Shown here piece by piece: positions 2,177 to 61,749 of a stretch of DNA of 64,000 bases (the first letter of the stretch is position 1; every line of letters starts with the position of its first letter). This stretch comes from Sphagnum compactum (taxonomy: Eukaryota). A model generated the notes under the pieces. That model saw only the letters and a program-made list of their open reading frames with translations, was not told the origin of the DNA and made no database searches. Location: positions 19,520,213 through 19,584,212 of the forward strand of contig OZ234493.1 of NCBI GenBank assembly GCA_965153455.1, given 5' to 3'. Position numbers and translations under genes: made by a program.

Positions 2177-5100
2177 ATGCAGGTGCAATGGTGTCTGGTT
2201 TTGTGTTGGGTGGTACTTCTTCTTCTTGTGTTGGCCGTGCATGGAAAGGAAACAATGGAGAAGAAGAGTAGTAGTGGCGCCAGTACAGATGTCACGGAGA
2301 GTCTCGAGGTTTATATGGTGCTTGTGAGTGGTCAGCCTGTGGTTGCTTACAAGGGTGGTCTGTCAGACCTCAATGCCACAGCTCAATTGTTCACCCGGAG
2401 ATGGAAATCTCGCCATCGCACTAGGTATGGCTTGGAAACAAACAAACATGCGTATTGCGCCCAGAAACACATTCGAGAGCTTGTTTCTCCAAGTTTTGGT
2501 TTTGGGTTTTGGGTTTTTTTTGTTTCATCAGCTTCTGATCTGGTGATCACCTGGTGGATCCACTGCCCGTTCATTCATTCCTTCATTCATTCGTGGTGAA
2601 GAAGAAGTTACTGTTGTCTTTGGCTTGACTACAAACTGGGGTTTTGTTTGTGGCTGAATTTGAGCTCATGAGCTCTGGAAAGAATCATCCAATGAGCATT
2701 TGAGCCAGGGATGGCTTTTTCCCAAGTCCTTGGATCTGGGCAGAATATCCCAAATTTAGTAACCAGCAGTCTAAGATCTCACAGAATCCTCACCCAATCC
2801 TCATGCCCATTCATACCCATTGTCTTTGTGGAATCCTCACCTAATCCTCATACCCATCCATACCCATTCCTAGTTCTCATTGTCATTGTGAATATGCCAG
2901 GAGACACCAACAGATTCTTTGGCTTTTTCTGTTTGTTTGGAAACTCTCTAAGCTCTGAGAGTTGGGGTTTCTTGTGGCAGAGGCTCCAATGCTAGAGACT
3001 ACTCGGTGAAGAAGTACAGAGCTTACCTGACAAAGAAGCAGGACGAGCTTCTTGAGAGCTTCTTCAAAACCCACCGTCGCCCCTACACCAAGCTTTACAG
3101 CTATCATCACATTGTGAATGGTTTTGCTGTGGAGCTCACTGCTGAAGAAGTATGCTGCTTAGGTTACATTATTATTCTTATGTACCTAAGTCATTCTTAG
3201 GTCTCTCCATTTTGGCAGAATTTCTTCAGAAACTCTCTGCCATAGCCAAATGACATGAAGAACAGCAATGTGTGTAAGTTACAGTTTTTACTTGCAGCAA
3301 TCAAATCCACTTACATTTTGTGTTGGGTTGGGTTTCTGTGTGTGGCATTGATTGTGATGGGGAAAAACCCTCAAAGGCAGAGCTCCTTGGGAAGGAACCT
3401 GGTGTCATGCAAATTGAGAAGAGCTACAGAGTTCAAAAGGCAACAGTCCACACACCGGAGTATCTTGGACTACCCGAAGGCATATGGGCCCAGGAAGGTG
3501 GATTTCTTCGTGCAGGTGAGGACATTGTGATTGGTTTTGTGGACACTGGAATCGACCCAACACATCCAAGCTTTTCTGCCACAGGACAAAGCCCTTACAG
3601 ACCTCTCCGATCATACCGAGGAAAATGTGAAGTTGCTCCTGAGTTTCCTCTTGGTTCTTGCAATGGGAAGATCATTGGAGCCCAACACTTTGCTGCTGCT
3701 GCATCACAAGATGGCATGTTCAATGCTTCTCTTTATTTTGCCTCCCCCTTGGATGGCGATGGCCACGGAAGGTTTGTCCTCAAGTCCTGGGCATTCTATC
3801 AGATGCAAAGAAAGATGTGTCAAGGCTGGAAAATACTCGATCGCTAGCACATTGTGGACAATAGGCTATCCTTCTGCTGCATAGTACAAAGCACATATGT
3901 GCCTGGTATGTGGAGCGGCTGCTGGTTCTGCCCTTCCGTCAATGTCATGTTGCATTTTCCAGCCATGGACTTGTCGCTGCCAAGAGACAAGAAACCATAA
4001 TGGCATGATTTTGACAATTCTTGACTCAGTGCTTTCTTTGTTGACCCACAAGGTGGTTGGTGGTTGTGGAGCAGCTGAAAACTTCTGCTTCTGTAGCCAT
4101 TTGCAAACAGTACTGCATTTCTTTCATATGTTTGTGTCTCCAGATGTTAGAAGCTGACAATGTTTGATTGTGTTGTTGTCAGTCATACTGCTTCCACAGC
4201 CGCAGGAAACCATGGAGTGCCTGTACTAGTGAATGGTGTATTCTATGGGAATGCCAGTGGTATGGCACCGAGAGCTCGGTAAGACTATATGTTTGTCTGT
4301 TGATTGATCTACCTGTCAACAAACCCCGGCGCATATCTCTTGTCCATGTTTTGATTTTAGGTGGTGCTTCTTCTTGTACTCCATGGTTGCTGGTGTTACA
4401 TAAGATTCTTGAACACAGTTTTAGAGCTCAGTTACTGCCAACATGAAGAGAGATTGATCTGGATTCTAGATCCTGTGGCAGCAGCCCTAATACAGCTCTC
4501 TGTGTAATTTACCTCTAAATTCCTGAAGGAGCTGTTTTGTTTGAAACCAACAGGATTGCCATTTACAAGGCATTGTACCGCATAATCGGAGGTTTTATGC
4601 CAGACGTTGTCGCAGCATGTGATCAGGTAGTTCTCAGAACTTTTGTTGCAGTTGTTGCAGTTTCCCAATCAATCTGGTTTGGGAAATGGGGATTGCTTGA
4701 ATGTATGTGTTCTTTGAAGCTAAAGATTGAGAATCTTTTTCAGTTTCGGACTTTTGAACTTCTTCTACTGGTGGGTGGGTTCTAGAGGGTAACTTGATTG
4801 TTTTTTTTCTTGGGGCCAAGCAGGCGGTTGCTGATGGAGTTGATGTACTTAGTCTCTCACTGGCACCGAATAGCCCACCTCCCGGTTCTATCAGCACCTT
4901 TCTCAACATCTTGGATGTGGCACTTCTGAATGCAGTCAAGGCAAATGTCTTGGTTGTCCAGGCTGCTGGAAATGGGGGTCCTCATGAACAGACTGTTACT
5001 TCTTTCAGTCCTTGGATAATCTCTGTTGGTGCCGGTGTTGATGACAGATCATACCCAAATACGATAGTACTCAGTGACAAGACTGTTCTTCCCGGGACTT

Positions 5101-7211
5101 TGTTGGCACGTAAGTAGTAAACTCTTCAAACAAAGGGAGGTTTTATTCAAGTAATGTGATCTGGTTGCATGGCAATGATACTTATGGTTTTGGTTGTTGT
5201 TCATGTACAATATGCAGCTCCAACAAAAGGCCCAATTTTCTATGACCTCATATTAGCAAATGATGCAGTTCAAGGTGAAGGCAACCCACTCTATTCTCCG
5301 AGTGACTGTCAAGTGCCTTCAATCTTTAACAAACCTTTGGTGCAAGGGAAACTTTTGATCTGTATCTACTCATTCAACTTTGTGTTTGGAGGCGCATCAA
5401 TGCAACAAGTGGTGACGACACTTGAAGCTTTAGGAGCAGCTGGTCTAGTCATGGTGGTGGAGTCAGATTCTGCAGGAAGCATGTTTACTCCCATTCCTCT
5501 GACAATGCCAGGCATTGTCCTTGTAGATGCAATGCATTCTGAGGCAAACACTCTTGTCCTTGATCCTGATCTTGCATCCTAAACCCAAATCACAAACTAG
5601 ATCAATTGGGAGCGAAACCTAAACCTTCCATTAAATACCTAATCCTCTGATTTTGCATGCACTGAATCACATTGTGAGGTTGGTTGAAGAATCCACTTGT
5701 AATTTTGCTGCAAATTGTGGTCTGACAGGCTTTGCTCACATATTATAGTAAAAGAACAGTCAAGGATGCGACTGGCAAGCCTGTTCAATTCGGAGCTCAA
5801 GCTAGAATTGGGGGTGGCCAGATTGCCACTTACAGTGGCCAAGGACAACAAGTGGCACTGTTTTCTTCAAGGGGACCAGACATGAAGGATTTCAATTTCA
5901 ACCAGGCGGATGTCTTAAAGCCTAATATCTTGGCACCCGGATACCTGATATGGGGAGCATGGACTCCTATTGGAATTGATAGCCCTAATTACATAGGTGA
6001 GCTGAACCCATTATTATGCACATCCAGCAAAAAAACTTGAAAAAAAAAAGACTGTAACATGCCCCTTTTTGCTGCATATGTGGTTGCACTGATTTTGGGC
6101 ACACTGATTTGATATGTAAATGGGTTTTAGGCCAGAGATGGGCAATGATGTCAGGGACGAGTATGGCGACACCGCATGTGGCTGGTCTTGCAGCATTACT
6201 GAAAGAGAAGTACCCTCTTTGGAGCCCAGCAGCACTTGCCTCAGCACTGGTAACCACTGCAGACCTAGAGGATTCACGGGGCATACCTCTTCAAGCTCAG
6301 CAAATCTCTGGAAGCTCTGCACCTTCATTGCAACCTGCCACACCTTTTGATATGGGTGGTGGTGCACTTAACATAAATGCTGCTGCCAATCCGGGTATTA
6401 TCTTTGATGCAGGTCAGTAATAATTCTTTGTTTCTCTCTGCTTTTACAAATGAAATTTGCACAATTGTGAGCATCGTCTTTTTTTTTGGGTGAATTTCCA
6501 GTGTGACTCATACAAAGGATTTTTGTGAAAAAAATGTGCCAAAGTCACTAGATTTCGAGGAATGTTTTTTTTCCCATTTTAAGACAATTGGTTCCAGTAG
6601 ATTGCCAAAGTATAGCACGATTCTTAAAATTTTCTACTTTCCTCTCTGACATGTATCCAAATTTGGCTAATTCCTCTTTTGGATGACCACAAAATTGAAA
6701 ACCCTAAACCTTAAATTCTTGGAGCTCAAAACCATCCAGTGCTGGCTGATCTAATTCAGATTGCTTGGGTAAAATTATGTTGGGAACAGGAGAAGCTGAT
6801 TATGTTGCATTTCTATGCTCTGCGGAGGGGGCAACTCGTGAGCAAATCTTTGCATCAACAGGTGGCATGTGCCCAAGTCTACTGGGACGATCCACAGATC
6901 TCAACACTCCATCGATCACTCTTGCCTGTCTGAATGGCACCCAGATTCTCTTCAGGACAGTCACAAATGTTGCCAACAACATTGAAACTTACACAATTAC
7001 TTGGACTAGTCCAGCCGACGTTGCAGTTGCCATTGCTCCTGTGACCTTCACTGTTGGTGGTGCTGGTGAACAACAGTCTCAACAGATCACATTCACTTTG
7101 CGAGCTACTGGCGTTTCAACTGTCTCTTCTTTCGGACGTGTTACATTTGTTGGGAATTTAGGTCATCAAATACACATTCCAATCTCTGTTACAAATAAGA
7201 ATCTGGAATAA
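2177..7211 (+). CDS. Subtilisin-like serine protease (S8A, SBT2.5/SBT2.6-like), 10 exons, ~854 aa, intact
   Basis: Exons joined by hand with consistent phase: 2177-2424, 2981-3149, 3377-3771, 4183-4278, 4554-4626, 4824-5109, 5218-5543, 5729-5996, 6131-6412, 6790-7211 (2565 nt, ends TAA). Signal peptide (WCLVLCWVVLLLLVLAVHG) and I9 propeptide (KLYSYHHIVNGFAV...TVHTPEYLGL). Catalytic triad GFVDTGIDP / DGHGSHTAS / SGTSMATPH, oxyanion AAGN, PA-like insert, C-terminal Fn3-like region (DLNTPSI...RTVTNV). Alternative in-frame ATG at 2129. Confidence 0.93.
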
Positions 7212-7299
7212 AATATGATTTTCTTCTTTTGATATGAAAAATCAAACCCAGAAATTAGTCAGTCTCATTTTGGGGTTTTTACTGAGAATCTTTTTCTCC

Positions 7300-7506
7300 A
7301 TTTTCTGATGTAGTGGTGATCATCCACAAGAAGAATTAGCCAAATGTGGCTACATGTCAGAGATGAAAGTAGATCATTTAAAGAGCCCTACTTTATTTCG
7401 GTGAATTGCTGGAACGTATTGTCTAAATATGGCAATTTCAGAAAAAAAAATCTTTGAAATGTGGCAGACTCCAGCAGATTTTTTTCACAAAAATCCTTTG
7501 TATGAA
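7300..7506. repeat. Copy of a dispersed ~200-300 bp repeat family marked by the palindrome TAGCCAAATTTGGCTA
   Basis: Related copies in both orientations at ~470-770, 1320-1500, 6490-6690, 21770-22000, 31430-31790, 33130-33340, 34270-34430 and 55490-55611 + 58286-58370. Confidence 0.8.
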
Positions 7507-7978
7507 AGAATGGAGGTAACTTTTTCATTCATCCTCTCTAATGTAGTAACCTGCGGTTTACCAAGGGTTCCCAGATTTTAGGGTTTGAGTTTAGGAAAAC
7601 TGGGTTGCCATAGAATGTATGATGTTGGTATACAAGTCATGCGAGGTCAGGACTTGTTTGAGTCCGATATTAACATGTTCATATTGAAGGCAAAATCAAA
7701 TTCAGGTCACACCATTCATGTGAAGGTCAGAAAATAAATGTTCAAAGTTTGCAGAAATCAGTTCGCTAGGAAACAAGAGCAACATCTGTTGCCAAGCCTG
7801 TTATTTGCTAGGGCACTGTATTCTGATATATTCACACAAGCAGTGATTGTTTAAATCCTTCATCTTGCCTGGCCCACAGCAAATGGCCAGCAGCGCAGAA
7901 TACAGTCTCCTCGAGCAAGCACTGCCTTTCTTTTCAATTTGGGAACGGTTCCAAATCACAATTTCGAGCAACACATTA

Positions 7979-10900
7979 TTAATCTATGCACGACTGACGG
8001 AGCAAAGCTTTGACCTTTTCCTCTTTGCAGTGTGCCCGCAGCTTGCGCAAACTCAAGTCTTTGACACCTTTGTGCCCAGGATTCTCCTTATCTGAGCACC
8101 TGAGAGGTGTCTCCTTGCTTTTAGGCAGTCTTACATTCAAAGGAATGTCCTTTAAAACACCAGGATTTTGCTGCATCCATAGAAGACATACCATTTTCAT
8201 TAAGTGTTTGGAAAAAGGAAAAGACTATGAGAAAACACTCAAGAGTGCAAAGTGCTTTGGATATGTGATGCTAGATGTGATGATGATTTTGACCATGCTT
8301 CTCACCTTTTTCCTCTCCTTGCAATGAGCATGTGGTTTACGCAAGGTTGTGTCCTCCAGATCCTTGTGTCTAGAGTTGTGCTTGTGTACTAATTGTCCAG
8401 CTTCCAAAGCAGCTCCAAGGATTTGTCTCTCCTTTCTACTGGTGGAATCTAAAACCAGCATCTCCCCACCAACAGACTGTTTCAGTTCATTAGATGTCTC
8501 ATTCCTGGCATTTGCCACCTCAGATTGACTAGAGTCTCCAGGAATCTTTGTGTGTGCAGCACTCTCTGCCTTCCATTCTGCATACTTGGACAGAATCCCA
8601 GTGGCCTTTGCTATAGTTGCATCAAGTTGTAGCTGGATCCTTGACAAAGGACTAATTTCTGCAGGAGCAGTCAGAACCTGGATGGGCACAGAAACCATCT
8701 CCAATGCATTGAGTGTTGAAGATGTCACTGAAGAGCTCTCCATCTGTGCCAGACCCAGAATGTCTGGTTCTCTGGCACTTTCATGATCCATGCCAGCACT
8801 CCCATTGCTGTTTCTCATGCCCAATAACTCCGTATGTAAGGCAACATTACTGACAGCATGTTCTGGATCTGGTTTCATGCTCTTCATTTCTACTAAATCT
8901 TGCAATATTTCTTTGGCTGCTTCTTCACCCACACAACCAGGTTTTGCATCCAAAGTAGCATTTTGAGCATCAAACACTACAGGCAGTACTGTCTCTGTCT
9001 GTAACAGCGCCACAGGATCCACCATTGGCACACTGTCACTTGTTTGTTTGCCAAGCAGGTCCTCAAATGTATCAAAAGCACTTTCCAGATCCAATTCTTC
9101 TGGTAATACCCCTGGTAATACTCTCTCCATCTGCAACAGCAGTCCTTGAGCATCTCCATGATCCAACTTTATTTCACTGTCATCTGGTTTTCTGCTGATA
9201 TCCTCCATGACGTCCAAGGCATCAGCTGTCAAAGACATCTCCAAAACCTCCATCTGCGGCAGATCATGAATGTAGTAATCCATCTCTGTCTTCCATTTGC
9301 TGTCTCTAATACCCAGCAGCTCCTCATGTAGTGCAGTATTGGTGACAACAAGTTCTGCAGCTGGATTCAAGCTCTCCACTTGCTGCAGTGAACCCTGCAC
9401 AACTTTGTCAGCCTCTTCACCACCAGCAGATCCACGTTTTGCATCTTCAAACTGGGTTGTTGGGCTTGCAGTTTTGACATCAAATTCTTGTGGAACACTT
9501 GTCTCCATCTTCAATTGCTGTTGAGTTTCATCAAGCTCCAACTTCAATGGCTCCTCACATTGTGAAGCAGTCTGAGTGATAGATTGTGTAGAGGAGGATA
9601 TGCTTCCTACCTGCAATCGCCCACCACCAAGAAGCTCCTTGTACACATCAAGATTCTCAACTTCCAGTCTCATGGGTGATGATGAAGGTCTCTCCACTTC
9701 AACCCAATTCTTCTGTTCAGGTTTGATGGCCTTGAACTCAGTTTCTGTGTACAACATGCTCTCCAGTTGCTGCTCCTTGTTCCCTCCTTCCTGTACAGCA
9801 CCATTGGAGGAAAGTAGGGTTGCTGCTGCTGTTACCCCTGCTGATGCTTTCAAGGTTGGAGGCTCTGCACTCGAGACATTGAACCCTGCAGAAATGTCTG
9901 CCAAAGGAGACATTTTCCTGGATTTTGTAGTAGCCTCCTTGGTCATACCACCAATCTCATGGGAGCTCCTCTTTGGTGCCTTGCAGCCAAGCATATTGCT
10001 CCGTGTTACCAACACTGCAGTGCATAGATAGCAGAGTCAGATGGTCACCAAAGAGTAAGGCTTGTCAGGTTCATCCTTTCTTGGTGGGCATGCTCTGCTG
10101 CCTTCCTCAACAGACTCCGAATGTAATCCTCTTCTTCTTCTTCCCAACATGCTATAGCACACTAAGAAAAAGACCGTTCTGCTGTTGAGGCAAGAATCTA
10201 TTTCACATGAGGACATGTGAAGAAACCATCATAGAACAGAGTGCAAAAGGATGAGAGCAACAAAGACATGCACCTTGTTTTTCTGTAGCAAGATTACTAT
10301 GACACTTCTCCTCAGGAATAGAGTAAAGCTGTCTGTCATTTTTCTTCAAACCGCGCCTCAAGGGAGTTGTATTCGGTTGCGGGAATCCCAATACCCTCTC
10401 ACCACTTGAGGAGGAGTGTATAGAACTCGGTTTCTCACTGCTGCGTCTAGCTAATGAAGAAGAAGAGGACGACTTTAAGGTGCCTGAGAGTATCAAGGAC
10501 GCCAATGAAGTCTCGGGAATGTCGGACTTCTTCTCGCCTCTGGCCTTCATGATCGTGGTCTTCGTCACCCCCAGAAACTGTGACTTCGCAGTAGCCTTTC
10601 GCTTTGTGCTCTGTACCTTCTGCAAACCACTCTGGAGGTCGATTGCCATGCAGCATTTCAGGAAAGAAATCATTTGCATCAGCAGGATTCGCATCTATCT
10701 GAAAGCAAATCTGCTAACTTATATCAAAATGATTCTGATATGGTGAAGCTCATGCAGATTTGCAAGCTCCTATAGAAGATCCGCACACAAAAACCCCACA
10801 AAACATCATCTCACAGGAAGAATAGGAAGAAAACCAGACAGAATGAAGCCAACCAGAAGCTAGAGAGGAAGCATCTTTTGCAATCCTAGCCGAGATGCAA

Positions 10901-45300: not shown

Positions 45301-47975
45301 ACAAATGGGTGGTATTAGTCCCTTGTTATAGATCATTTAGATTAATGTGACATGTGCTATTGGCCAAGTGCAAACTCTAAAAATTTTGATTTTGATTTTT
45401 TAAAATTTATTTTTTCTAATGATAAAATTATTCAAAATTCAATATCTCCCCCACTGTTGGTCTAAAAATTTACAAAAATACCTTCACAAAATTTTACTCA
45501 TTGAGCACTTTCCAACAATACCAAAAGAGCACCCCCAATTTTCCTTAAAATAATCATTTTTAGTTTTATTGAATTTTCAATAACAAAATTGTTGAACATT
45601 AAGTAGTTCTTGCATTGTAGGTCTAAACATTATGAAACCACCTCCATGCGCCCCTACTTGTTGAAGGCCCCCTACTTGTTGAAGGCTTTGGACAACAGTA
45701 CCAAGAATGCAGGGGGTGATATTGTGATGGAGATCTCAACTTGACAAAGCAAAACAAACAAACCACAAATGGACAGATTGTACAAACCTCCTGTAAGGCC
45801 AATTTGTATTGTAGAATTGTTGCTTTGGCTCCAGACAAAGTATGGGTACATTCCTTTCCTGGCCAAAAAAAAATGTGGGTTTTTTTCTAAACATAAGAAA
45901 TAAGAAGAAACCCTGTATAATTTTTTTAATTAATAAAAAAAATTAAAAGAAAAAGAAATAGAAATAGACATAGTGTCCTTAGACTAAACCAGGGTGTCTA
46001 ACTGAGTTCAGACTCAGATTTAACATTTCCCAGGTTTTATATAGCCTCCAAAATGCCTCACACAAGCAGTTGATGGTAGGATGAAAAAGTGTTTTCCTGT
46101 CCATCCACCCATCCATCCATCCATCCCTCATGATGTCCCCAGCTTTGTTGCAAATCAGTTACGAAACAAAAATTCATACTGTGTAAATTGTTGTTGAGTC
46201 TGCAGGTATGGAAACAATCCCAGGTCTGGTAGTACTTAATAGTAGGTGTTGGTAGATAGGTAGGTAAGTAGGTGTGAGTGGGTAGGTAGATAGGTAGGTA
46301 AGTAGGAGTGGGTGGGTAGGTAGATAGGTATGAGTTCGAATGTAGGAGCCCTTTGTTGCCCTGCGTGTAGAATCGTTAAATATTTTTTTCAGTTATATGA
46401 TGTTGTGTCATTGGCTTGCATCCAAAGAAGGATTTCACATTAATTAATTAATGACATGTTTTTAGAACCTGTCTGATGTAAACCGGCCCCCATCATCGAG
46501 CACCTGTCTGTGACCAAACACTTTGACAAATCTTTCTCAATTCTTCTCCATCTTGAGTGATTTAAAATGTTTTATGAGCGCCTTCTCAAGCTCTACAAAT
46601 CATCTTCGAAATGCAAAGCCAGAAAAGATCAGCCCAAAAATATGTTTTTTTGAATTGCAAAACTGTTTTTTTTTAATCTTTTTGACTCGCTCTACTTTCA
46701 AACCATATAACTTTCTTATTTCTTTATTCATTTAAAATGATTTAAAAGTGTTATAAGAGCACCGCCTGAAGTTTTACAAAATCATCTTTGAACTCTAATA
46801 GCTATAAAGTAACATAAAATGAAAATTTGGAGTGTTCAGGAACCAGCCTTTGTAATGTTTGGTGGTTTGTTTTTTTGAGTTCTTAAGCCCCTTTACTTTG
46901 GGGGCTGTAACTTTCTCATTTCTAATCTGTTTCCAACGATTATTAGTGTATCAAATGTGCCAAGAGGCAGGGTTCAAATTTTGTTTGGACACCAAAAACA
47001 AAGGGAGCCCTCCCCTTGGATCTGGCCTGCCCTGAGCACTTAAGTGTTCGATCACCAACCAGTCTACCCTAGAGTGTAAAAAAAAAAAGTTTTAAACATG
47101 CTACCTAATTGAAGTCAGAGTCCAAATGAGATGTCCAAAAAAAAAACTTTTTTTTGAAAAATTTGGCAAAGTAATGGGATAGAGTATTATTGCCTTTTTA
47201 TTTTTCAGATAAAAATCAGTTATGGAATTTTTGTATTTATGAATTTGGTTGTTGTTGTAGTTTTTTCTGTTGTTTAGAAAGTTTCAAGCTACAGGTGTGG
47301 TAGTAAAACTACAGAAGGAGTTGGTAGGTAGGAGACGCTGGGCAGGTAAGTAGCAGTTGATAGTAGGTAGCTGGAGTAGGTAGGTAGGTAGGTAGGTACC
47401 CTGCCTGCAAACTGTCTGCCTGCCTGATCAGTTATGATTCTGTGTTTGTGAACTTTTGTTGTTGTTGTTTGTGTTGCTGTTGTTGCTGGTGGTGGTGGTG
47501 GTGGCAGACGCGGTTTTCAGGACAAATGGCAGTCACGACGAGCATTGAAGTCCTTACCACCCACCATAACTTACTCATGAATGAGAGTAGTAAAGATTGT
47601 CACTGCATCGTCCCTCCCTCCTTCCCTTCCCTTCCCTTCCCTTCCCTTCCCTCCCTCCGGGTTGATTCCCTCTGCACATCAATCACCATCTCCTCCAGCT
47701 GCTAAGCTTACTAGGCTAGGAGTCCTTCATCACTCACTGCGCAACATAAACGGACAAATGACGTGCGCTTTTATTACAACAAAGTTTCTCATAATAATAA
47801 TAAAAATAATAATGATCTCTAGTCACGCCGTGACTCATGATTCAACGGGTGGCACTGCAACCAAATCAATTAGGCCTTAATTACAGCGTGGTTGCTCCAG
47901 TAGTAGAGACTGTGTTACTGTAGTAGTAATAGTAGTAGTTTTTTCATTTCCATCCATTCCAGCTTCCAGTTCTCG

Positions 47976-47981
47976 TATATA
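47976..47981 (+). promoter_or_regulatory. Probable TATA box of the HRGP gene
   Basis: TATATA about 70 nt upstream of a GTGAGT donor at 48053, which opens a 5'-UTR intron ending TGCAG at 48225. Confidence 0.5.
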
Positions 47982-48247
47982 TTTGTGTTGCATTTCCTCT
48001 TCTCATAAGCAGCAGGAACTCGCAGCCGCAGCGGCAGCAGCTCAGCTTCGAAGTGAGTGTGTTATTACAGCAGCGATCGATCAACAGCTGGGTGGGTTTC
48101 CAGCTCGGTCATTGCAGTAGTACTCGCATACAGCTCGTAGTTGCTGCTAGCTTTTGTCTCTTTAAGCTCCGTTTGTGTCGTAGTTTCTTTTCGGGTCTTT
48201 CTTTGGAGGACGTGGTTTTCTGCAGTTGTCGTCTCAGTTTGCGCAAG

Positions 48248-48898
48248 ATGAAGGGAGGTATGGCCGTGTTTCTGTTGTTTCTGGCTGCGGTCGGCTGTGT
48301 GTCTCTGGGAGCAGAGAGTCGTCCTCTGCTGAGGGGCACGATGAAGGACCTAGGCGCCATTGCGGGGCTACTGCCCAGTTGCTCACCAGAGTATGCCCCA
48401 GCTCCAGAAGACTACTATCCGTCTCCATCTTACAGCTCCCCATCGCCTGCGTATTCATCACCATCTCCGGTTTACTCTTCTCCATCTCCAGTCTACTCTT
48501 CCCCATCACCAGTATACTCTTCCCCATCACCAGTATACTCTCCATCACCCGTCTACTCGTCTCCATCGCCAGTGTACTCATCTCCTTCACCAGTCTACTC
48601 GTCTCCATCACCTGTGTACTCTTCTCCTTCACCAGTCTACTCGTCTCCATCACCCGTGTACTCTTCTCCTTCACCAGTGTACTCTTCTCCTTCACCAGTG
48701 TATTCTTCTCCTTCTCCAGTGTACTCTTCTCCTTCTCCAGTGTACTCTTCTCCTTCACCAGTGTATTCTTCTCCTTCTCCAGTGTACTCTTCTCCTTCAC
48801 CAGTGTATTCGTCTCCTTCCCCAGCGTACTCGTCTCCTTCCCCAGCGTACTCGTCCCCTTCCCCAGTCTACTCTTCTCCTGCACCTGGAGGGTACTAA
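48248..48898 (+). CDS. Secreted extensin-like hydroxyproline-rich glycoprotein, 216 aa, (YSSPSPV)n
   Basis: Signal peptide MKGGMAVFLLFLAAVGCVSLGAES, short spacer with one Cys, then 22 heptads, ending GGY*. Third codon positions vary among repeats while the amino acids are conserved, which identifies this frame as coding. 5'-UTR intron 48053-48225. Confidence 0.9.
   Translation: MKGGMAVFLLFLAAVGCVSLGAESRPLLRGTMKDLGAIAGLLPSCSPEYAPAPEDYYPSPSYSSPSPAYSSPSPVYSSPSPVYSSPSPVYSSPSPVYSPSPVYSSPSPVYSSPSPVYSSPSPVYSSPSPVYSSPSPVYSSPSPVYSSPSPVYSSPSPVYSSPSPVYSSPSPVYSSPSPVYSSPSPVYSSPSPAYSSPSPAYSSPSPVYSSPAPGGY
48431..48889 (+). repeat. Coding 21-bp tandem array, 22 units (one 18-bp unit)
   Basis: 459 nt = 21x21 + 18; consensus TAC TCT TCT CCT TCA CCA GTG. 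Confidence 0.95.
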
Positions 48899-53260: not shown

Positions 53261-55604
53261 GTATCTTATAGAAAAAACATGTTCAAGTGTCAAAAAGGTT
53301 GTTTGAACAGAAATGACATGACAATTTTTCAATTGTCATCAAATTGACATCACATCAATTTTTTTGTCACAACAAACACATAACTAATTTTAACCACAAT
53401 TTATGGTGGTATTTTTTGAATTTTTTCAATTGAAAAGAATATAGGGTAATTCACATTTTAAATCTAAGTGGAAAATACACTTTACAAGTGAATTTTTTTT
53501 ATATATAACATGCAATAGGAAAAAAAAAATTGCATGAAAATGTTAGAAATTAAATTAAGTTTAAGTTTTACTTGTTATTGTAACATTTTTACATCTGATG
53601 TTAATTTTTGGAAGTAAATAATACTTTAAGAATATATTAATTCATTTGCTTTATGATTGCACGTAAATGTGTTAAGGTCACATATAAATATTATGATTTT
53701 TAAAATTCTAGTTATATGTAAACATGCTACAATCTCATTTATAAAATTAAAAAAAAATCATTTCTTACAATTGCATATAAGAATTGTTTTAAAGAAAAAC
53801 ATTATGGTTGCATATGAAAGTAAATAATCTTAACATTGCACATAGAAAATAAGTTTATTACCTCATTATATTTGAAGTCACATGAAAAAATGTTAACATT
53901 GCATGTAAGAAATATATTTTTTGATTTAACTTTTATAGTTCATATAGAATTGTGACAATCACACATAGAAAACAAACTAATTCATTTTATTGATGATTGT
54001 ATGTAAAAATGTTTTAATCACATATATTGTAATCACAATCACTTGTATGGGTTCTTTCCCTCATTTTTAGTTTGGGTTTGGCCAAGTTTGGTTGCATGAT
54101 GTACACTTATGGACATTTGTATGAGAACAAGGTTTTTTGGGTTTTCTGAAGGTGTTAAGGGTGTTATCAAGCATAATTTTTTTGGCCACATGTATTATGC
54201 TAAGTGGTTGCTTGTATGATTTTTTAAAAACTATTTTAGACACCCATTGTTTAATCATATGTATTATGGTTATGGTTGATTGTATAAAAATAATTATTTA
54301 AAAAATTTCAACAATTGTAGTTTCAGTGGCTTGTTAAAATGTTTATTTCATTTTATTTTCTTTACAGTCATGTGTTGTTTAATTCATTCAAGTTTAAATT
54401 ATATTTTTCAATATTTTGTAAAATGACCAACAAATAAGAAGTAAAATAAAGGAAAACAACATGGGGTGTAATATATTTATACAACAATGATCATTCAAGA
54501 AATTTTACAAATTAAAATTTAGTTGGTCTACCTTTTGTAAGATGAATCATCATTTATGCACAAATATTGCTCATCTTTCTAAACTCAAAGAACATGTGCA
54601 TCCAAATTTTCAATGATGTCATGGCATATTTTGCATAAAGTAACATTCACTTAGTCATGGTTATTACTCCACAAATTCTTTCAATGTTTCCATATACCTT
54701 TCAAATTTCAATAAAATACATCTATTAAGTTACATTGTTATTTCACTTCATGTACCAAAACTATCAATAAATGTTCTTGGCTATCAAATAATGAAATTGA
54801 AACTAACATTTGAAGAAGAATTATCACCACAAATATTTCACTTTCCATGATTGCAAATTTCATTCAATCCCCATACTTGGAACAAATCCCAATAGGTACG
54901 GTGTGTTTTGTAGAAGGGGTATTAATTGAAACAAAAAAAATGTTGGCAATCATGTCTAGGATTAGAATATACATGTAGCCAATGAGATGACTAAACATAA
55001 ACCCAAGAGGGTTCATTTTCTTTCCATGGGGGGTGTGATAATGGATTTTTAAAATTCTTCTATTCCCACATGTGTTCGTAATAGCACTTCAGTTTATCCC
55101 ATATTCTTTGTCCAAAGTTTTCCCCTTTTCACTTATATAGGTGAGAGGCATTCCATCCTCACATCAAAATAGTTATTTTGGTGAGCTTTCCAAGTTTATT
55201 TATTTATTTATAATGGTGGGCCAATCAAAATGGCCCGTTGCAAAAAAAAAACAAAACAAAATCAAATCAAATAATAAAACAAAAGTTGGGGAGGCAACCC
55301 ATCCAATGAATAGGAGAGGAGAGATGAATAGATGAGTCATGCCAAATTATATTAAATTGATTCCCTCGCCCCTTGTGTCATAAACCCCCAAATCGAAAGA
55401 AACAAATGGCATCAAATGATATTGTTAAATTCATGTGATTTCAATCTTGAAAAACAACCGTCCTCAAGTTGAGTGAATGGTGCAAAATAATCACATTGTC
55501 AATTTCCATAAGAAGAATCAACCAAATTTTGCTATGGTTAAAGATAAAATAAAAAATATTTAAGAATTACATTATATTTGGGCAACCTATTGGAAGTTAT
55601 TGTT

Positions 55605-56228
55605 CTAAATACTAGTAGGTAACCCGTGGCTACGCCACTCCAGCCACCCCGAACGCTCCATAAATATTGATGATGACTCCAGAAATATTTCCCAATCATT
55701 TTTTAAATGATTAAAATTCTTGTTTGTTGCCTTTAGAGAACCCTTTGTAATGAAATACACCATGCCCACATCAATTTTATCATAGAACCGATCCACAACA
55801 TTGTTGAAGCAAGTAGCTCGAATCTCTCCATTATCTGCATCCAAAAGGTCAAAGGAGAAAACCTTGCCATCTCCCCTGGCGTTGTGGAAACGGCGGACAT
55901 CACTCTTGGCAGTCACTCTTACTTTGATAGTCCACCGACCCTGGTATGGATTCAAGGCGGCAATTGGGACAATTCTGGCAGGTGCTTCATTCTTGGCAAT
56001 GGGTCCTCTATTTGAATAAACAGGGGCAGGTTGGTAGGGAGGAGCAACACTGGGTCTTCCATATGTGTTTTGTTGCTGAACTTGCTGATTATTAACCCCA
56101 CCTACTTCACCCATAGCTAGCCTCTGAAAGTCACCAGAGTTAGTCTGAGGCACAACACTCCCTCCTCCATGTCCATCAGAGTAACTTCCATTATTGGATT
56201 GACCTACACCTCCTTTAATATTCATGTC
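55605..56228 (-). pseudogene. RPA1: Helitron-captured fragment of Replication protein A 70-kDa subunit (linker + DBD-A OB fold); ORF open
   Basis: PPYQPAPVYSNRGPIAKNEAPARIVPIAALNPYQGRWTIKVRVTAKSDVRRFHNARGDGKVFSFDLLD..GEIRATCFN...KGSLK...FNHLKNDWEIFLE. Homology stops at ~55668. No DBD-F, B or C is present. Acceptor CAG at 56231-56229. Confidence 0.88.
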
Positions 56229-56684
56229 CTGTATGTTTTTTGTGATAAACCAAGATAGGACATCTGATTGATACCCTTTGTTTCTTGTATGTATTTGTGA
56301 TCAAATTATGTTTTCATTGATCTTGATAAACCAAGATAGCTTGAAAAAAAGAAAGTCATAAGTTAAAATTTCCTTCCCTTCTCCCTCCCTTCATAAAGAA
56401 CATACCAGGAAATCTTGATGTCCTAGCTTCATACAATTTCAACAGCTTCATGTTATCATACAATTGTTGCAAGAAATGCATTACTTTGTCAGGGAGAGAG
56501 GCTTGAGACAACAAGTGTCTAGGTTGAGCATTCAGGTCAATCATGCCTGATACAGGCTGGTTGTTCTCGAGCAAACCCACTCAAATGGACTAAACACTGA
56601 AACCTGCCATCCTTTGGTGATACATCCCACTACTGTCCTTGCATGCATAAGGTTTACTTTGGCAGGCTGAGTTTCCTGCATGAC

Positions 56685-56847
56685 ACTTCCAATGCAAAGC
56701 TGCTAGAGAAAGCTGCACTAAAAAGAAATGATGACAGATCACAGACATGTGTTTATTGCTTAGGAACTTCCAATGCAAAGCTGCTAGAGAAAGCTGCACT
56801 AAAAAGAAATGATGACAGATCACAGACATGTGTTTATTGCTTAGGAA
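56685..56847. repeat. Exact 81-bp tandem duplication inside the Helitron
   Basis: acttccaatgcaaagc...tgcttagga is repeated at 56685 and 56766. Confidence 0.95.
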
Positions 56848-57971
56848 AGGTTGGTTCTACCAGTCAATTCCTGGAAGCAGAAAGTACAGCATCATGAATG
56901 CTCTTGGACATGTAGACAATGACACACTATGTAGTGGAGCAACGATGCCAATGCACATCCATTTTCAAGTGTTTCTCAGGTCCTTTGCAATTTGCAGAAT
57001 ACCTGTCTCCAGTGCCATATTGGTTCTTTCTGTTGCATCATTGACAATATAAACTTTTGGTGCTAAGTTTTCAAAATACCTGATAATATCCATTTTGCAA
57101 CCTAATTCCAGCACTTGGTGATTTGCAGACCTTAGGAGCACACAATCAAACAAATGAGACAAACAAACCCTAACTCAAGTCTTTACCCACTGATAAGTGG
57201 AGTATGGAGGGTACTTGTGTCCACTTCATCAGCAAACTTGGTGAAAATAGATACAAACTATCAGTCCCAAGAATCTAACATATGAGATTTTCTGCTGTCC
57301 TTCCTACAGGTCCATACTGCAAGGAAAGCTGCTGAGTACCTGCATATTCCAACACTCACCTGGCATGGGTGAAGCAGGAAGGAGGGCCTTGCACGTAATG
57401 AGTCACATTCAGAAATCCCTGTACCCTGTGCAAGAAAAAAAGAATCAAAGCAATAATGGCTCTGACTGACCTGCAAACCTGCACAGGATCAAATGGTATC
57501 AATGTGTTACATTCTACTCTCACACCTAAATGACTAACACAGGGAAGATGGACACTGATAGTGGCAAATTAAGTAACAGAGGATCATCCACATTGCAATC
57601 TTAGGTGCTCTCCACTCCACCTGCAGCAGATGTTATTGGGCCTGCAATCTTGACATACATAGAGAGGAAGAGAGCAAGGGACTGACGTTAACAAATATAG
57701 CCGCATTCAATAGAGATTTACCCATTTTCTGCCCATGTTCACCTGTACACAAACAATTTGTTGGCTCTTATAGCTCCAATTCCAAAACATTTCAAGTTGC
57801 TGGCCTATGATTTTTTATGAATTTTTTTGATGAGGATTGTTGAATTTTGTTATGAATTCATTGCAGCTCTTACTTTGATTCTTACATTCTGGAGGTCAGC
57901 AAATCTCTTAAATGTGCCATTGGCATCTAAAGTTATGAATTGAAAGACAGAGAGACACAGACACAGACACA

Positions 57972-58102
57972 CAGAGAGAAATACAAAAGGGATTTGAATG
58001 TGGTCTCATTGAACATTGCTCTGCTCTTATCTGAATGCATCTTCTTCAGAGAGAAATACAAAAGGGATTTGAATGTGGTCTCATTGAACATTGCTCTGCT
58101 CT
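57972..58102. repeat. 56-bp direct repeat (75-bp period) inside the Helitron
   Basis: cagagagaaatacaaaaggg...ttgctctgctct at 57972 and 58047. Confidence 0.95.
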
Positions 58103-59779
58103 GATGTGAAGCATATGTCTGTCTCTTGGAGCTTTTTCAGAGATCAGAGACATCATGGCAATTTCTAAGAATTTGCTTTTCAAAGATGTTTCCCAACTGC
58201 CCTAACTGCCGCCGGTTCCGGCGTAATGTTAAAACGCAGAACGTCTTGTGACACACAGACACCACTGTAGCTTTTATATATAGGATGGCAATTAAAAAAA
58301 AATTCTTAAAATATGGCAACCTTGGCACATTTTTTTCACAAAATTCCTTGCATGAATCACATTGGATTTTTTAAAAGTCAATTGTCAAAAAAAAAAAAAA
58401 ACATTAGCACAAAATGTTAAACATTTTAATGGACTTAAGAGCTTGTAAAAACACCTTTCATTCCTTTTTTTGCAAAATGATAAGACTTTTCTTATACACT
58501 AATTTACTTTTTGCAAGAATTTATAATGTTTATTTACTTGTTAATATGTGGGCACATAGGCCAATTTGTAAGAATGAAACACAAATGGAAAATAAGACCT
58601 AAAATTTGAATTCTTGTCATAATGATTAGAACCAAGTTGATGGAAAGTGATATTTTTGTGACATGAATAGCAACAAGCAACTTTAACATTAAACATCATC
58701 ATCATTCTAAGCATGTTTCAAAATTTCCTCCAAAATCAATAAAATCAAGTCCAAAAAGCTTTAGGATTTAACATTCAAAATGTTAAATGTTAAATCCTAT
58801 TTTTTAGATTTGTATTTAATAGGTGAGATGTGCTTTGGAGATCTTCACTTTTTATAAAGAGCTCCAACTATCCATTGGAAATAGTTTCCAATTGTTTAGA
58901 AGGAAATTTGAAAGGGAAATAGATACTATTTGGTTGAATTAGTTTTTTGCCCTTATATTCAAACTTGGGCTCTGTGTTGCTTCACTCTACCAATGATGAT
59001 GAATTGTTTTAAAAAAGGATATAGATGTCATATTAATTCATATTTTGGGAAGGGAAAGATGTATATGTTATTTATGGAGTTTCATAAATGTGTTCGTATT
59101 TGTGTCAAAACATATTGAAATTTTTTGGGATCTCCAAATGCAATGTTTGTTGCATATGTTATTGTGAAAACACCACATGATGAGTTGTCTATTTGCTACA
59201 TTACATTTGCATATGTGTATAACAAGTTATTCACATTTATAAGTTTGCATAATAATTGGATTGTGTTGCTAGGCAATTTTTTCGTCATTAGCATATGTGA
59301 ATTGTATATTGTACAATGTAAATTAGGAGGTGACATGTGGATTTTTATTAATATCCAATGATAGTTGTTTATGAATATGTGTTGAAGACATTTTTTGACA
59401 CATGTTGATTTTTTTCCTATGATTGCATATGTATGTTATTCATATCCTAATGATTGTAATTTTTCAACATATAATATTTGCATAACACTTCCTAAATGTT
59501 GGTCACTTAGCCATCCGTCACATTGCCTTCACTCTTGAAAGTTGGCTAAAACCTTAAAAACCACAAAATTTTCATGGTTATTTTTTTTTCTTAAAAAACA
59601 CTTGCCAACTTGTAAAAAATCACAAAAAAAAAGACACCTGTTACATATAAGAAATAAACTTTTAATTGATTTTTACAATTACACCTAAAATGTTATAATC
59701 ACATGTAAATAATTACTTTATCAATTCATTTTGTGTTAAAGTATTATGGTGGGATGTAAGAAATAAAGTTTACAATTTA

Positions 59780-60960: not shown

Positions 60961-61749
60961 TATGTCATGAATGGCATCTAGCATGACACAAGTGGGGAAA
61001 AAATTTCATTTTTTAACTTTAGGTTGCCACATGGCAACTCATAAACAATCAACAAAAAAATGATTTGATTAAATTTCCATGCGGTAACACATAATAATTA
61101 AGCAAAAAAAAATTGATGCTCTAGGCCTAGGTTGCCACATGTAAATGTAGTTATTAACATTTAGGTCTAGGCTACTTAGGCCAAGCACATGGCAACAAGC
61201 ACTAAAACCCTAAGTTGAAAGAAACAAATGGTATCAAATATAAGACTATATTTTGACAACTTATGAAACTTGTTATCTAAATATCGTGTTTTAAAAAAAA
61301 CAAAATCAACAAACTATGGCAACTTTAACACAAATTTTCAAAGAAATTCTTATATGAGTCACATTATAATTTTTTGTTGCCAAATGCCAAAAAAATATTG
61401 TCATAAAACCTTGTTGGCATCTTAATGGACTTATAAGCTTATAGAAATACCTTTCATTCTTATTTATGCAAAGTGAAAATAGTTGCATTGTATACCAATT
61501 AACCTTTGGCATGAAATTTTAATGTTCATTCAAACCTAAATTAATCATTATGAATTCACATTTATTGTATTTTATAAATATCATTCACTTCACCTAATAA
61601 AATAAATATGCAAGTTCCAACTATCTTGAAGTAAACTTTGGAATAAACCAACTACTATTTTAATGGTTTAATTAATCTTTTGCCCTTATACCCAATCTTA
61701 ACAAATGATTTGCAACAATTTGCAATTTGTGCACAAATTATCTTGCTCC

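Follow-up and report, generated by a model that had tools for sequence, protein, structure and literature searches.

The element and its boundaries

The 64-kb stretch of Sphagnum compactum DNA analysed here (hereafter the window) carries on its minus strand a 2,674-bp sequence (55612..58285) that has the appearance of a non-autonomous Helitron copy, with a 5'-TC (58285-58284) after an A (58286) and a 3'-CTAG (55615-55612) before a T (55611). It opens with the left (5') terminal sequence of a high-copy family (58144..58285, minus strand, the inner limit being approximate) and closes with the right (3') terminal sequence, which is 46 nt long (55612..55657, minus strand) and comprises a hairpin (55626-55647), a 10-nt spacer and the CTAG, the T at 55611 lying outside. 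Between these ends lie a 547-nt fragment of RPA1 (55667..56213, minus strand), a 9-nt filler between this fragment and the 3' terminus (55658..55666, minus strand), a 127-nt stretch of non-RPA sequence that abuts the fragment on its 5' side (56214..56340, minus strand) and apparent pieces of two more genes, which are dealt with below. Elsewhere, the window contains the exons of a subtilase gene (3278-7211, plus strand; Peptidase_S8, E 3e-14; fn3_6, E 3e-18), a 603-codon open frame that has no Pfam family (8225-10036, minus strand) and a long proline-rich ORF (47939-48898, plus strand) with about 20 SPSPVYS-type repeats and a weak PXPV match, which resembles an extensin-like wall protein.

The RPA1 fragment belongs to a reading frame that crosses the 3' end of the element. 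On the minus strand, 55605..56300 is open for 231 codons from stop to stop, which places it among the eight longest of the 28 stop-to-stop frames of at least 120 aa in the 64-kb window. From its ATG (at 56225) to its stop (TAG, 55607-55605, the last sense codon being at 55608), the ORF (55605..56225, minus strand) is 206 codons long and consists of four non-RPA codons, 182 RPA codons and 20 codons of filler, terminus and flank. An earlier note on this DNA had described a stop-free 206-codon ORF encoding part of RPA, which reads through the hairpin and CTAG and stops in flanking DNA at 55605-55607, and all of this was confirmed. Pfam detects a single OB domain in the ORF (PF01336, OB-fold, E 6e-11), and past the end of the element the frame takes in the T (55611) and two further codons in the flank before it reaches the stop, which sits 5-7 nt inside flanking DNA.

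The limits of the element emerge from its copy excess, which was judged from the contigs of two DNA runs (X1 and X8, from two organisms) on 55000-58900 and from metagenome contigs. In X1, contig depth is 25-30 in the flanks, 385-825 in the interior (55655-58143) and 11,295 and 11,903 in the two terminal bins (55524-55654 and 58144-58274, respectively), that is, 15-25 times the depth of the flanks in the interior and ~400 times at the element ends, ratios which have to be taken as orders of magnitude only since contig depth is not copy number. The second organism displays a similar excess in both the interior and the terminal bins (4,076 and 11,761 in X8). The single-copy flank contigs of X1 end at 55638 and start at 58259, which is exactly 27 nt inside both element ends, and the TC...CTAG ends coincide with the boundaries set independently by contig depth. 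Insertion was between A (58286) and T (55611), with no target-site duplication (the flank is not duplicated at the element ends). Terminal inverted repeats are lacking too, as the 17 inverted pairs include none that links the two ends. In addition, the termini are joined to many different interiors, as seen from loose ends that lead into other sequences in the two organisms.

These properties correspond to the definition of canonical Helitrons (HLE1) given in the available part of PMC11417382, which asks for A|TC...CTRR|T ends, a subterminal 3' hairpin ~10-12 nt ahead of the CTRR and no inverted repeats, and the same source reports Helitron-like elements in Sphagnum magellanicum. The ends at 55612 and 58285 are thus, by all appearances, the defining ends of a canonical Helitron, and the earlier note was correct in placing the cargo inside an element with Helitron ends (A|TC at the start, CTAG|T at the end). 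A repeat that is not a Helitron but a segmental or other transposon-mediated duplication, merely ending in TC and CTAG, would sit well with three observations: (i) the 3' hairpin (6-bp stem, 10-nt loop, 10 nt before CTAG; -5.2 kcal/mol) is weak, with 86 of 200 shuffles folding at least as well (z = -0.01), (ii) Pfam detects no RepHel, Helitron or PIF1 domain in any of 35 ORFs (13 others from the element plus 22 from the loci) and (iii) no clean empty site was found, the paralogous repeat at 61203-61530 being only roughly consistent with an A/T insertion (it aligns from ~58290-58300, which supports the right boundary, and its left side is fuzzy and loose). We nevertheless consider such a duplication very improbable, owing to the equal ~400-fold depth excess at both ends, the sharp and symmetric boundaries, the many interiors found on the same termini, the lack of inverted repeats and of a duplicated flank, and the A|TC, CTAG|T and 10-nt hairpin spacing, which fit the canonical definition (PMC11417382, in the part available).

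Beyond a partial match in L015 and a diverged relative of the left end in L012/L013 (~1.8 kb upstream of the RPA fragment that these loci carry), no full-length termini are present in the 69 metagenome loci, and the L015 match (338-361, 24 nt, to a stretch of the 3' terminus) is the only partial one to the 3' end among these loci. Within the window, the 27-nt terminus has no second occurrence at up to three mismatches, and the only parts of 55001-59000 that recur are two tandem duplications inside the element and an old repeat in its flank. This old repeat is AT-rich and dispersed (70-81% identity; 58286-58534, 61203-61530, 6497-6571 and 7429-7506) and adjoins the 5' end of the Helitron, which to all appearances inserted into or next to one of its copies.

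The interior of the element is apparently a patchwork to which several host genes, in either orientation, have contributed pieces. One piece is a fragment of a second host gene (56359..56574, minus strand), which over ORF residues 3-74 shares 93% protein identity with P0202, an uncharacterised 148-aa model. It has no Pfam family, and RNA (reads and one contig) covers 56484-56573 alone, as an exon joined to other exons at either end; the RNA loose end upstream of it translates to P0202 sequence. Another is a 35-nt exon-like piece of a third transcribed gene (57861..57895, plus strand), which appears in RNA within another transcript: 22 polyA reads cover it, run on into unrelated sequence at either end and have their first mate on the minus strand. 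This piece is also found in X16 contigs. The 13 other ORFs of the element have no Pfam family. There are also two tandem duplications, a perfect 81-bp one (56685..56847, 2.0 copies, 100% match), which is presumably very recent, and a 75-bp one (57972-58114, 1.9 copies, 95%). Other interior copies (in contigs of X1, X8 and the RNA library X16) have 39-40 extra nt at 57082-57083, and one X1 contig skips 80 nt at 56978-57059.

Origin and truncation of the RPA1 fragment

The RPA1 fragment, whose blastn limits recur across the close loci that span them, contains part of the linker and the whole of DBD-A, and comes from inside the large third exon of the gene with a 48-nt in-frame deletion. It is identical to the host gene L001 at 524 of 547 nt (95.8%, with one gap that corresponds to this deletion), which agrees with the earlier description of the cargo as host-like, L001 being a full-length RPA1 gene. 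Indeed, L001/L002 is matched by Ceratodon RPA1 in tblastn over aa 1-26, 11-99, 90-605 and 598-855, with an INTS4-like gene upstream of RPA1, and the third of these segments (aa 90-605) is one open 1.56-kb exon, within which the window fragment wholly lies. An intron-less, cDNA-like form of this gene is found in L003. A second, more distant full-length RPA1 paralogue (L009) shows ~85% nt identity to the window fragment, and has its first three exon-like segments tandemly duplicated upstream of the RPA1 gene (4079-5276 and 7647-10227). The 69 loci from the metagenome contig scan may include copies from several related moss species, so family counts mix genomes. The closest named proteins to the window ORF are partial RPA1-like models of Sphagnum fallax.

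L001 itself was ruled out as the direct donor, because it has the minority state at ~10 of the 23 differences, where the dispersed copies share the state of the window. The donor was probably a closely related allele, homeologue or species variant of L001. To judge from its likeness to L001, the RPA piece was captured from the host recently and has no relation to the ancient RPAs of angiosperm Helitrons, descent from which its near-identity to core host RPA1 would exclude.

As for what is encoded, the RPA70 architecture is incomplete in the window, where only aa 230-362 of the 919-aa Ceratodon RPA1 are matched by tblastn (76% identical over these residues). In comparison with host RPA1/RPA70, the window fragment is devoid of the N-terminal OB, most of the linker, DBD-B and DBD-C with its zinc motif, and it has a 16-residue deletion and a 20-residue foreign tail. 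The earlier reading of an RPA1 linker followed by a complete DBD-A holds for DBD-A; the linker is partial, with 16 residues fewer than in the host gene. RPA sequence does not reach the start of the ORF, whose first four codons, like all that lies upstream of 56213, are of other origin. Residues 108-211 of the ORF match the DBD-A of human RPA70 (1jmc and 1fgu, solved structures of DBD-A/B; E ~5e-31). An AlphaFold model of this domain (the last 133 residues of the ORF, 114-row alignment; pLDDT 81.4, pTM 0.72), which superseded a poor first model based on a 19-row alignment (pLDDT 51), fits 1jmc_A at 1.3 Å (108 columns) and matches the isolated yeast DBD-A (1ynx) along 109 of 114 residues, which argues that the ORF encodes a complete DBD-A OB fold. 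Two aromatic residues, which we take to be those of DBD-A that stack on DNA, are conserved in the alignment of the ORF to 1jmc/1fgu and, since the frame is intact as well, a working OB fold could be made if the window copy were transcribed.

At the junction, RPA1 homology ends at 55667. The 9-nt filler comes next, without a match in RPA1 (as judged from L005) or in the family terminus (as judged from L015 and from the loose ends of X8 at 55657 and 55667), and after it the 46-nt 3' terminus of the family. The switch from RPA into the terminus, which had been put at ~55668 and at the last ~55 nt of the element, is thus real, but it lies at 55667/55666, and only 46 nt are terminus, the other 9 nt being filler. 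In X8 contigs, generic family sequence departs from the window at 55657 into unrelated family sequence, which L015 carries too, and another X8 contig (depth 393) leaves the window at 55667 and runs on into the next RPA residues. The junction and tail of the window are absent from the 69 metagenome loci and from 201 proteins.

A longer version of the captured segment is found in L005 (2,777 nt), which matches 56340-55667 of the window (674 nt) at 96.9% and has in common with it (i) the breakpoint at 56213, (ii) the 127-nt upstream non-RPA segment, which is the source of the ATG, and (iii) the 48-nt deletion. Past 55667, L005 continues for ~1.3 kb of RPA1, taking in DBD-B, the host intron and the exon after it, and has four in-frame stops. 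Host mRNA diverges from the window at 56213 (as seen from an RNA loose end), and this position was ruled out as an intron acceptor because the host gene has one continuous exon there, which makes it a rearrangement breakpoint. The deletion is also common to L012/L013 and occurs in P0126 and P0153, which reach further upstream. The window copy is thus a 3'-truncated derivative of a longer captured RPA1 segment, and its fusion is not a fresh capture. Of the recent and independent capture that had been suggested, what stands is that the piece is recent and host-derived, with 95.8% identity to core RPA1 and no descent from the ancient angiosperm Helitron RPAs; what does not is a fresh fusion, for the window copy is a truncation of a longer segment such as that in L005.

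Many RPA1 fragments have breakpoints that differ from those of the window, spanning host exon positions 492-1560 (L022), 540-1228 (L054) and 11-855 (L012). In P0001, P0123, P0128, L013 and L019, the DBD-A region shows head-to-tail duplication or unusual joins, which is likely to be further rearrangement of the amplified RPA1 family. The 689-nt fragment in L054 lies ~2 kb from retrotransposon RNase H and integrase domains (6297-7935, minus strand), so some RPA fragments reside in transposon-rich DNA of other kinds.

We infer the following series of events, in what would be their order: (i) a host RPA1 genomic segment, from in or before the third exon through the intron into the next exon, would have been taken up, (ii) the captured segment would have gained the 48-nt deletion, (iii) a burst of amplification to roughly 15-25 copies would have been followed by repeated rearrangement, (iv) in the window lineage, the 5' part would have been replaced at 56213 by unrelated sequence that happened to bring an ATG and (v) the whole stretch from the end of DBD-A to the final 46 nt of the element would have been lost, leaving the 9-nt filler, possibly through an internal deletion repaired by end joining. 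Because this internal loss would have fused DBD-A to the terminus, the frame would run by accident through the hairpin and CTAG into the flank.

Selection, transcription and the status of the ORF

A maximum likelihood tree of 17 sequences of at least 400 nt (the near-duplicates L003, L010, L013a and L062 being dropped) places the 15 dispersed copies together beside L001, in a single star-like clade without internal resolution (support 92/85); the paralogue L009 lies outside, and the window has a tip length of 0.018 substitutions per site. Substitutions were counted against a 22-copy family consensus (made without L001, L009 and six near-duplicates), p being that of a binomial test against neutrality. 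The window has nine nonsynonymous and two synonymous changes (pN/pS 1.31, p = 1.0), the pooled family 184 and 68 (pN/pS 0.80, p = 0.11) and the host gene L001 six and eight (pN/pS 0.22). All four changes private to the window are nonsynonymous, and transitions make up 9 of the 11 changes private or near-private to its lineage. Stops or frameshifts are present in the large exon of 17 of the 19 dispersed metagenome copies (48 stops in 5,860 codons), and the full-length genes L001, L009 and L010 have no stop across it. At this stop density, ~1.5 stops are predicted in 185 codons, which gives a chance of roughly 0.2 of finding an open frame, and that of the window is therefore unremarkable. These counts follow a neutral pattern, with no coding constraint, both in the window fragment and in the dispersed family.

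Expression was assessed with a polyA RNA-seq run of the same species label, ~12% of which was read and in which 75 reads mapped, 65 of them only partly. The window alleles are absent from these reads at all nine diagnostic sites covered (55789, 55876, 55881, 55921, 55968, 56207, 56511, 56521 and 56542), where 4/4, 6/6, 6/6, 6/6, 5/5, 6/6, 4/4, 3/3 and 9/9 reads, respectively, have non-window letters, the base at 55968 being host-type as in L001. Reads over the RPA part run upstream past 56213 into the host exon (by translation of the loose ends), and host RPA1 mRNA is present in the run. Reads with the Helitron 3' terminus (55609-55647) joined to other flanks or interiors (13 and 16 reads) imply that other family members are transcribed or lie within transcripts. 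The reads falling on the element can therefore be assigned to host RPA1, to other copies of the Helitron or to the genes from which the other fragments came. This does not amount to evidence of absence, ~12% of one polyA run having been read, and the window copy may be weakly expressed or give rise to small RNAs.

Altogether, the neutral pattern, the broken sister copies, the polyA reads without window alleles and a junction that recurs in none of the 69 loci and 201 proteins lead us to read the RPA1 piece as passive cargo, and they largely coincide with what the earlier note had named as evidence against its own idea. Very probably, the window element is a non-autonomous canonical Helitron with a patchwork of host-gene pieces, in which truncated RPA1 is carried along and the ORF is an accidental read-through. 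The ORF at 55605..56225 is without sign of function.

A different view, which the earlier note had raised, is that the ORF is expressed as a free single-OB protein, helping with the ssDNA intermediates of Helitrons or interfering with host RPA. It finds some encouragement in an open frame with an ATG, in a DBD-A fold that is complete and confidently modelled, and in the RPA-like genes that Helitrons of other lineages carry (PMC4683698; PMC11417382, as far as the available parts of these sources go). We nonetheless regard a functional protein of this kind as extremely unlikely, in view of the pN/pS of the window and the 17 of 19 sister copies that are broken, of the lack of window alleles among the polyA reads, of the missing junction in 69 loci and 201 proteins, and of the origin of its ATG in unrelated joined sequence, in a copy that is a deletion product. 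Its domain content speaks against it as well: DBD-C, which is required for joining the RPA trimer, is missing, and DBD-A alone binds weakly, high-affinity binding requiring DBD-A and DBD-B in tandem. As regards copy number, which the earlier note had proposed to check, RPA-derived DNA is multi-copy and not single-copy; the fusion itself has no second copy among the 69 loci and 201 proteins.

The multi-copy nature of this DNA underlies another possibility, namely that the 15-25 RPA1-derived copies, that of the window among them, are transposon DNA under silencing, and that the small RNAs they produce match host RPA1 as well and could affect its expression or methylation. Plant transposons with gene fragments can yield siRNAs, and the excess of RPA-derived sequence at 97% likeness or more, the ~96% identity to the host gene and the predominance of transitions in the window lineage (typical of decaying repeat DNA) are all compatible with such a scenario. 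Against it, host RPA1 is evidently not shut off, its mRNA being present in the polyA run, and nothing singles out the window copy, so that we deem a role through small RNAs improbable and retain passive cargo as our reading of the fragment.

Comparison with other gene-carrying elements

Non-autonomous Helitrons that carry gene fragments have been described in maize and bats (PMC4528327; PMC4778049), and in the available portions of these reports they resemble the window element in their TC...CTAG ends and AT target, in a 3' hairpin (putative in the window element), and in being mosaics of several host genes in both orientations, with chimeric reading frames and rearranged or novel 3' regions. 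The differences are that the host here is Sphagnum and that one of the cargoes is the host's own RPA1. Moreover, unlike in elements with de novo ends, the 3' terminus in the window is the normal one of the family, apparently joined to the cargo via an internal deletion and a filler. Pack-MULEs, which are DNA transposons carrying gene fragments (PMC1947982, in excerpt), are comparable in that host gene fragments, amplified and mostly non-functional, are found in a non-autonomous element, but they have terminal inverted repeats and target-site duplications, and the window element has neither.

The most pertinent comparison is with the plant Helitron RPAs (PHRPA, e.g. in Mothra), which are depicted in the accessible text of PMC4683698 as whole genes of monocots and dicots only, forming a clade outside core RPAs with a mutual identity of ~21%. 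Both cases involve RPA70-type OB-fold sequence within a Helitron. By that published description, however, the window fragment differs from PHRPA in being 95.8% identical to core host RPA1, reduced to a single domain and in apparently neutral decay, and it falls outside the PHRPA definition, as it is nested beside full-length host core RPA1 in the tree.

What the element might mean goes beyond the window copy. It would document in a bryophyte the kind of gene-fragment shuffling for which the Helitrons of maize and bats are best known, and it would show that core host RPA1 can be picked up by a Helitron. The latter bears on the debate over the origin of Helitron RPA genes, i.e. host capture versus horizontal transfer, the second of which is argued for in the accessible text of PMC4683698. 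There is perhaps an outside chance of something more, in that moss Helitrons may very recently have taken up and amplified nearly the whole DNA-binding core of host RPA1, comprising DBD-A, B and C together with an intron, and that an intact copy may serve as the ssDNA-binding protein of the element, or the copies may act collectively via small RNAs on host RPA1. If the reading with an intact copy were true, RPA1 would have been acquired afresh, separately from the cases in angiosperms, Helentrons and animals, and would be seen while most copies (that of the window included) decay as by-products.

There is also a warning for annotation, since the numerous short models called 'replication factor A' that are found in genomes of the Sphagnum type and in moss metagenomes would be transposon-borne pseudogene fragments. 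A more distant RPA-like OB protein, with 45-53% identity, is represented by P0189 and P0197 (from Sphagnum balticum and S. jensenii), which may include another chimeric model, the OB protein in P0189 being fused to an apparent piece of another protein.
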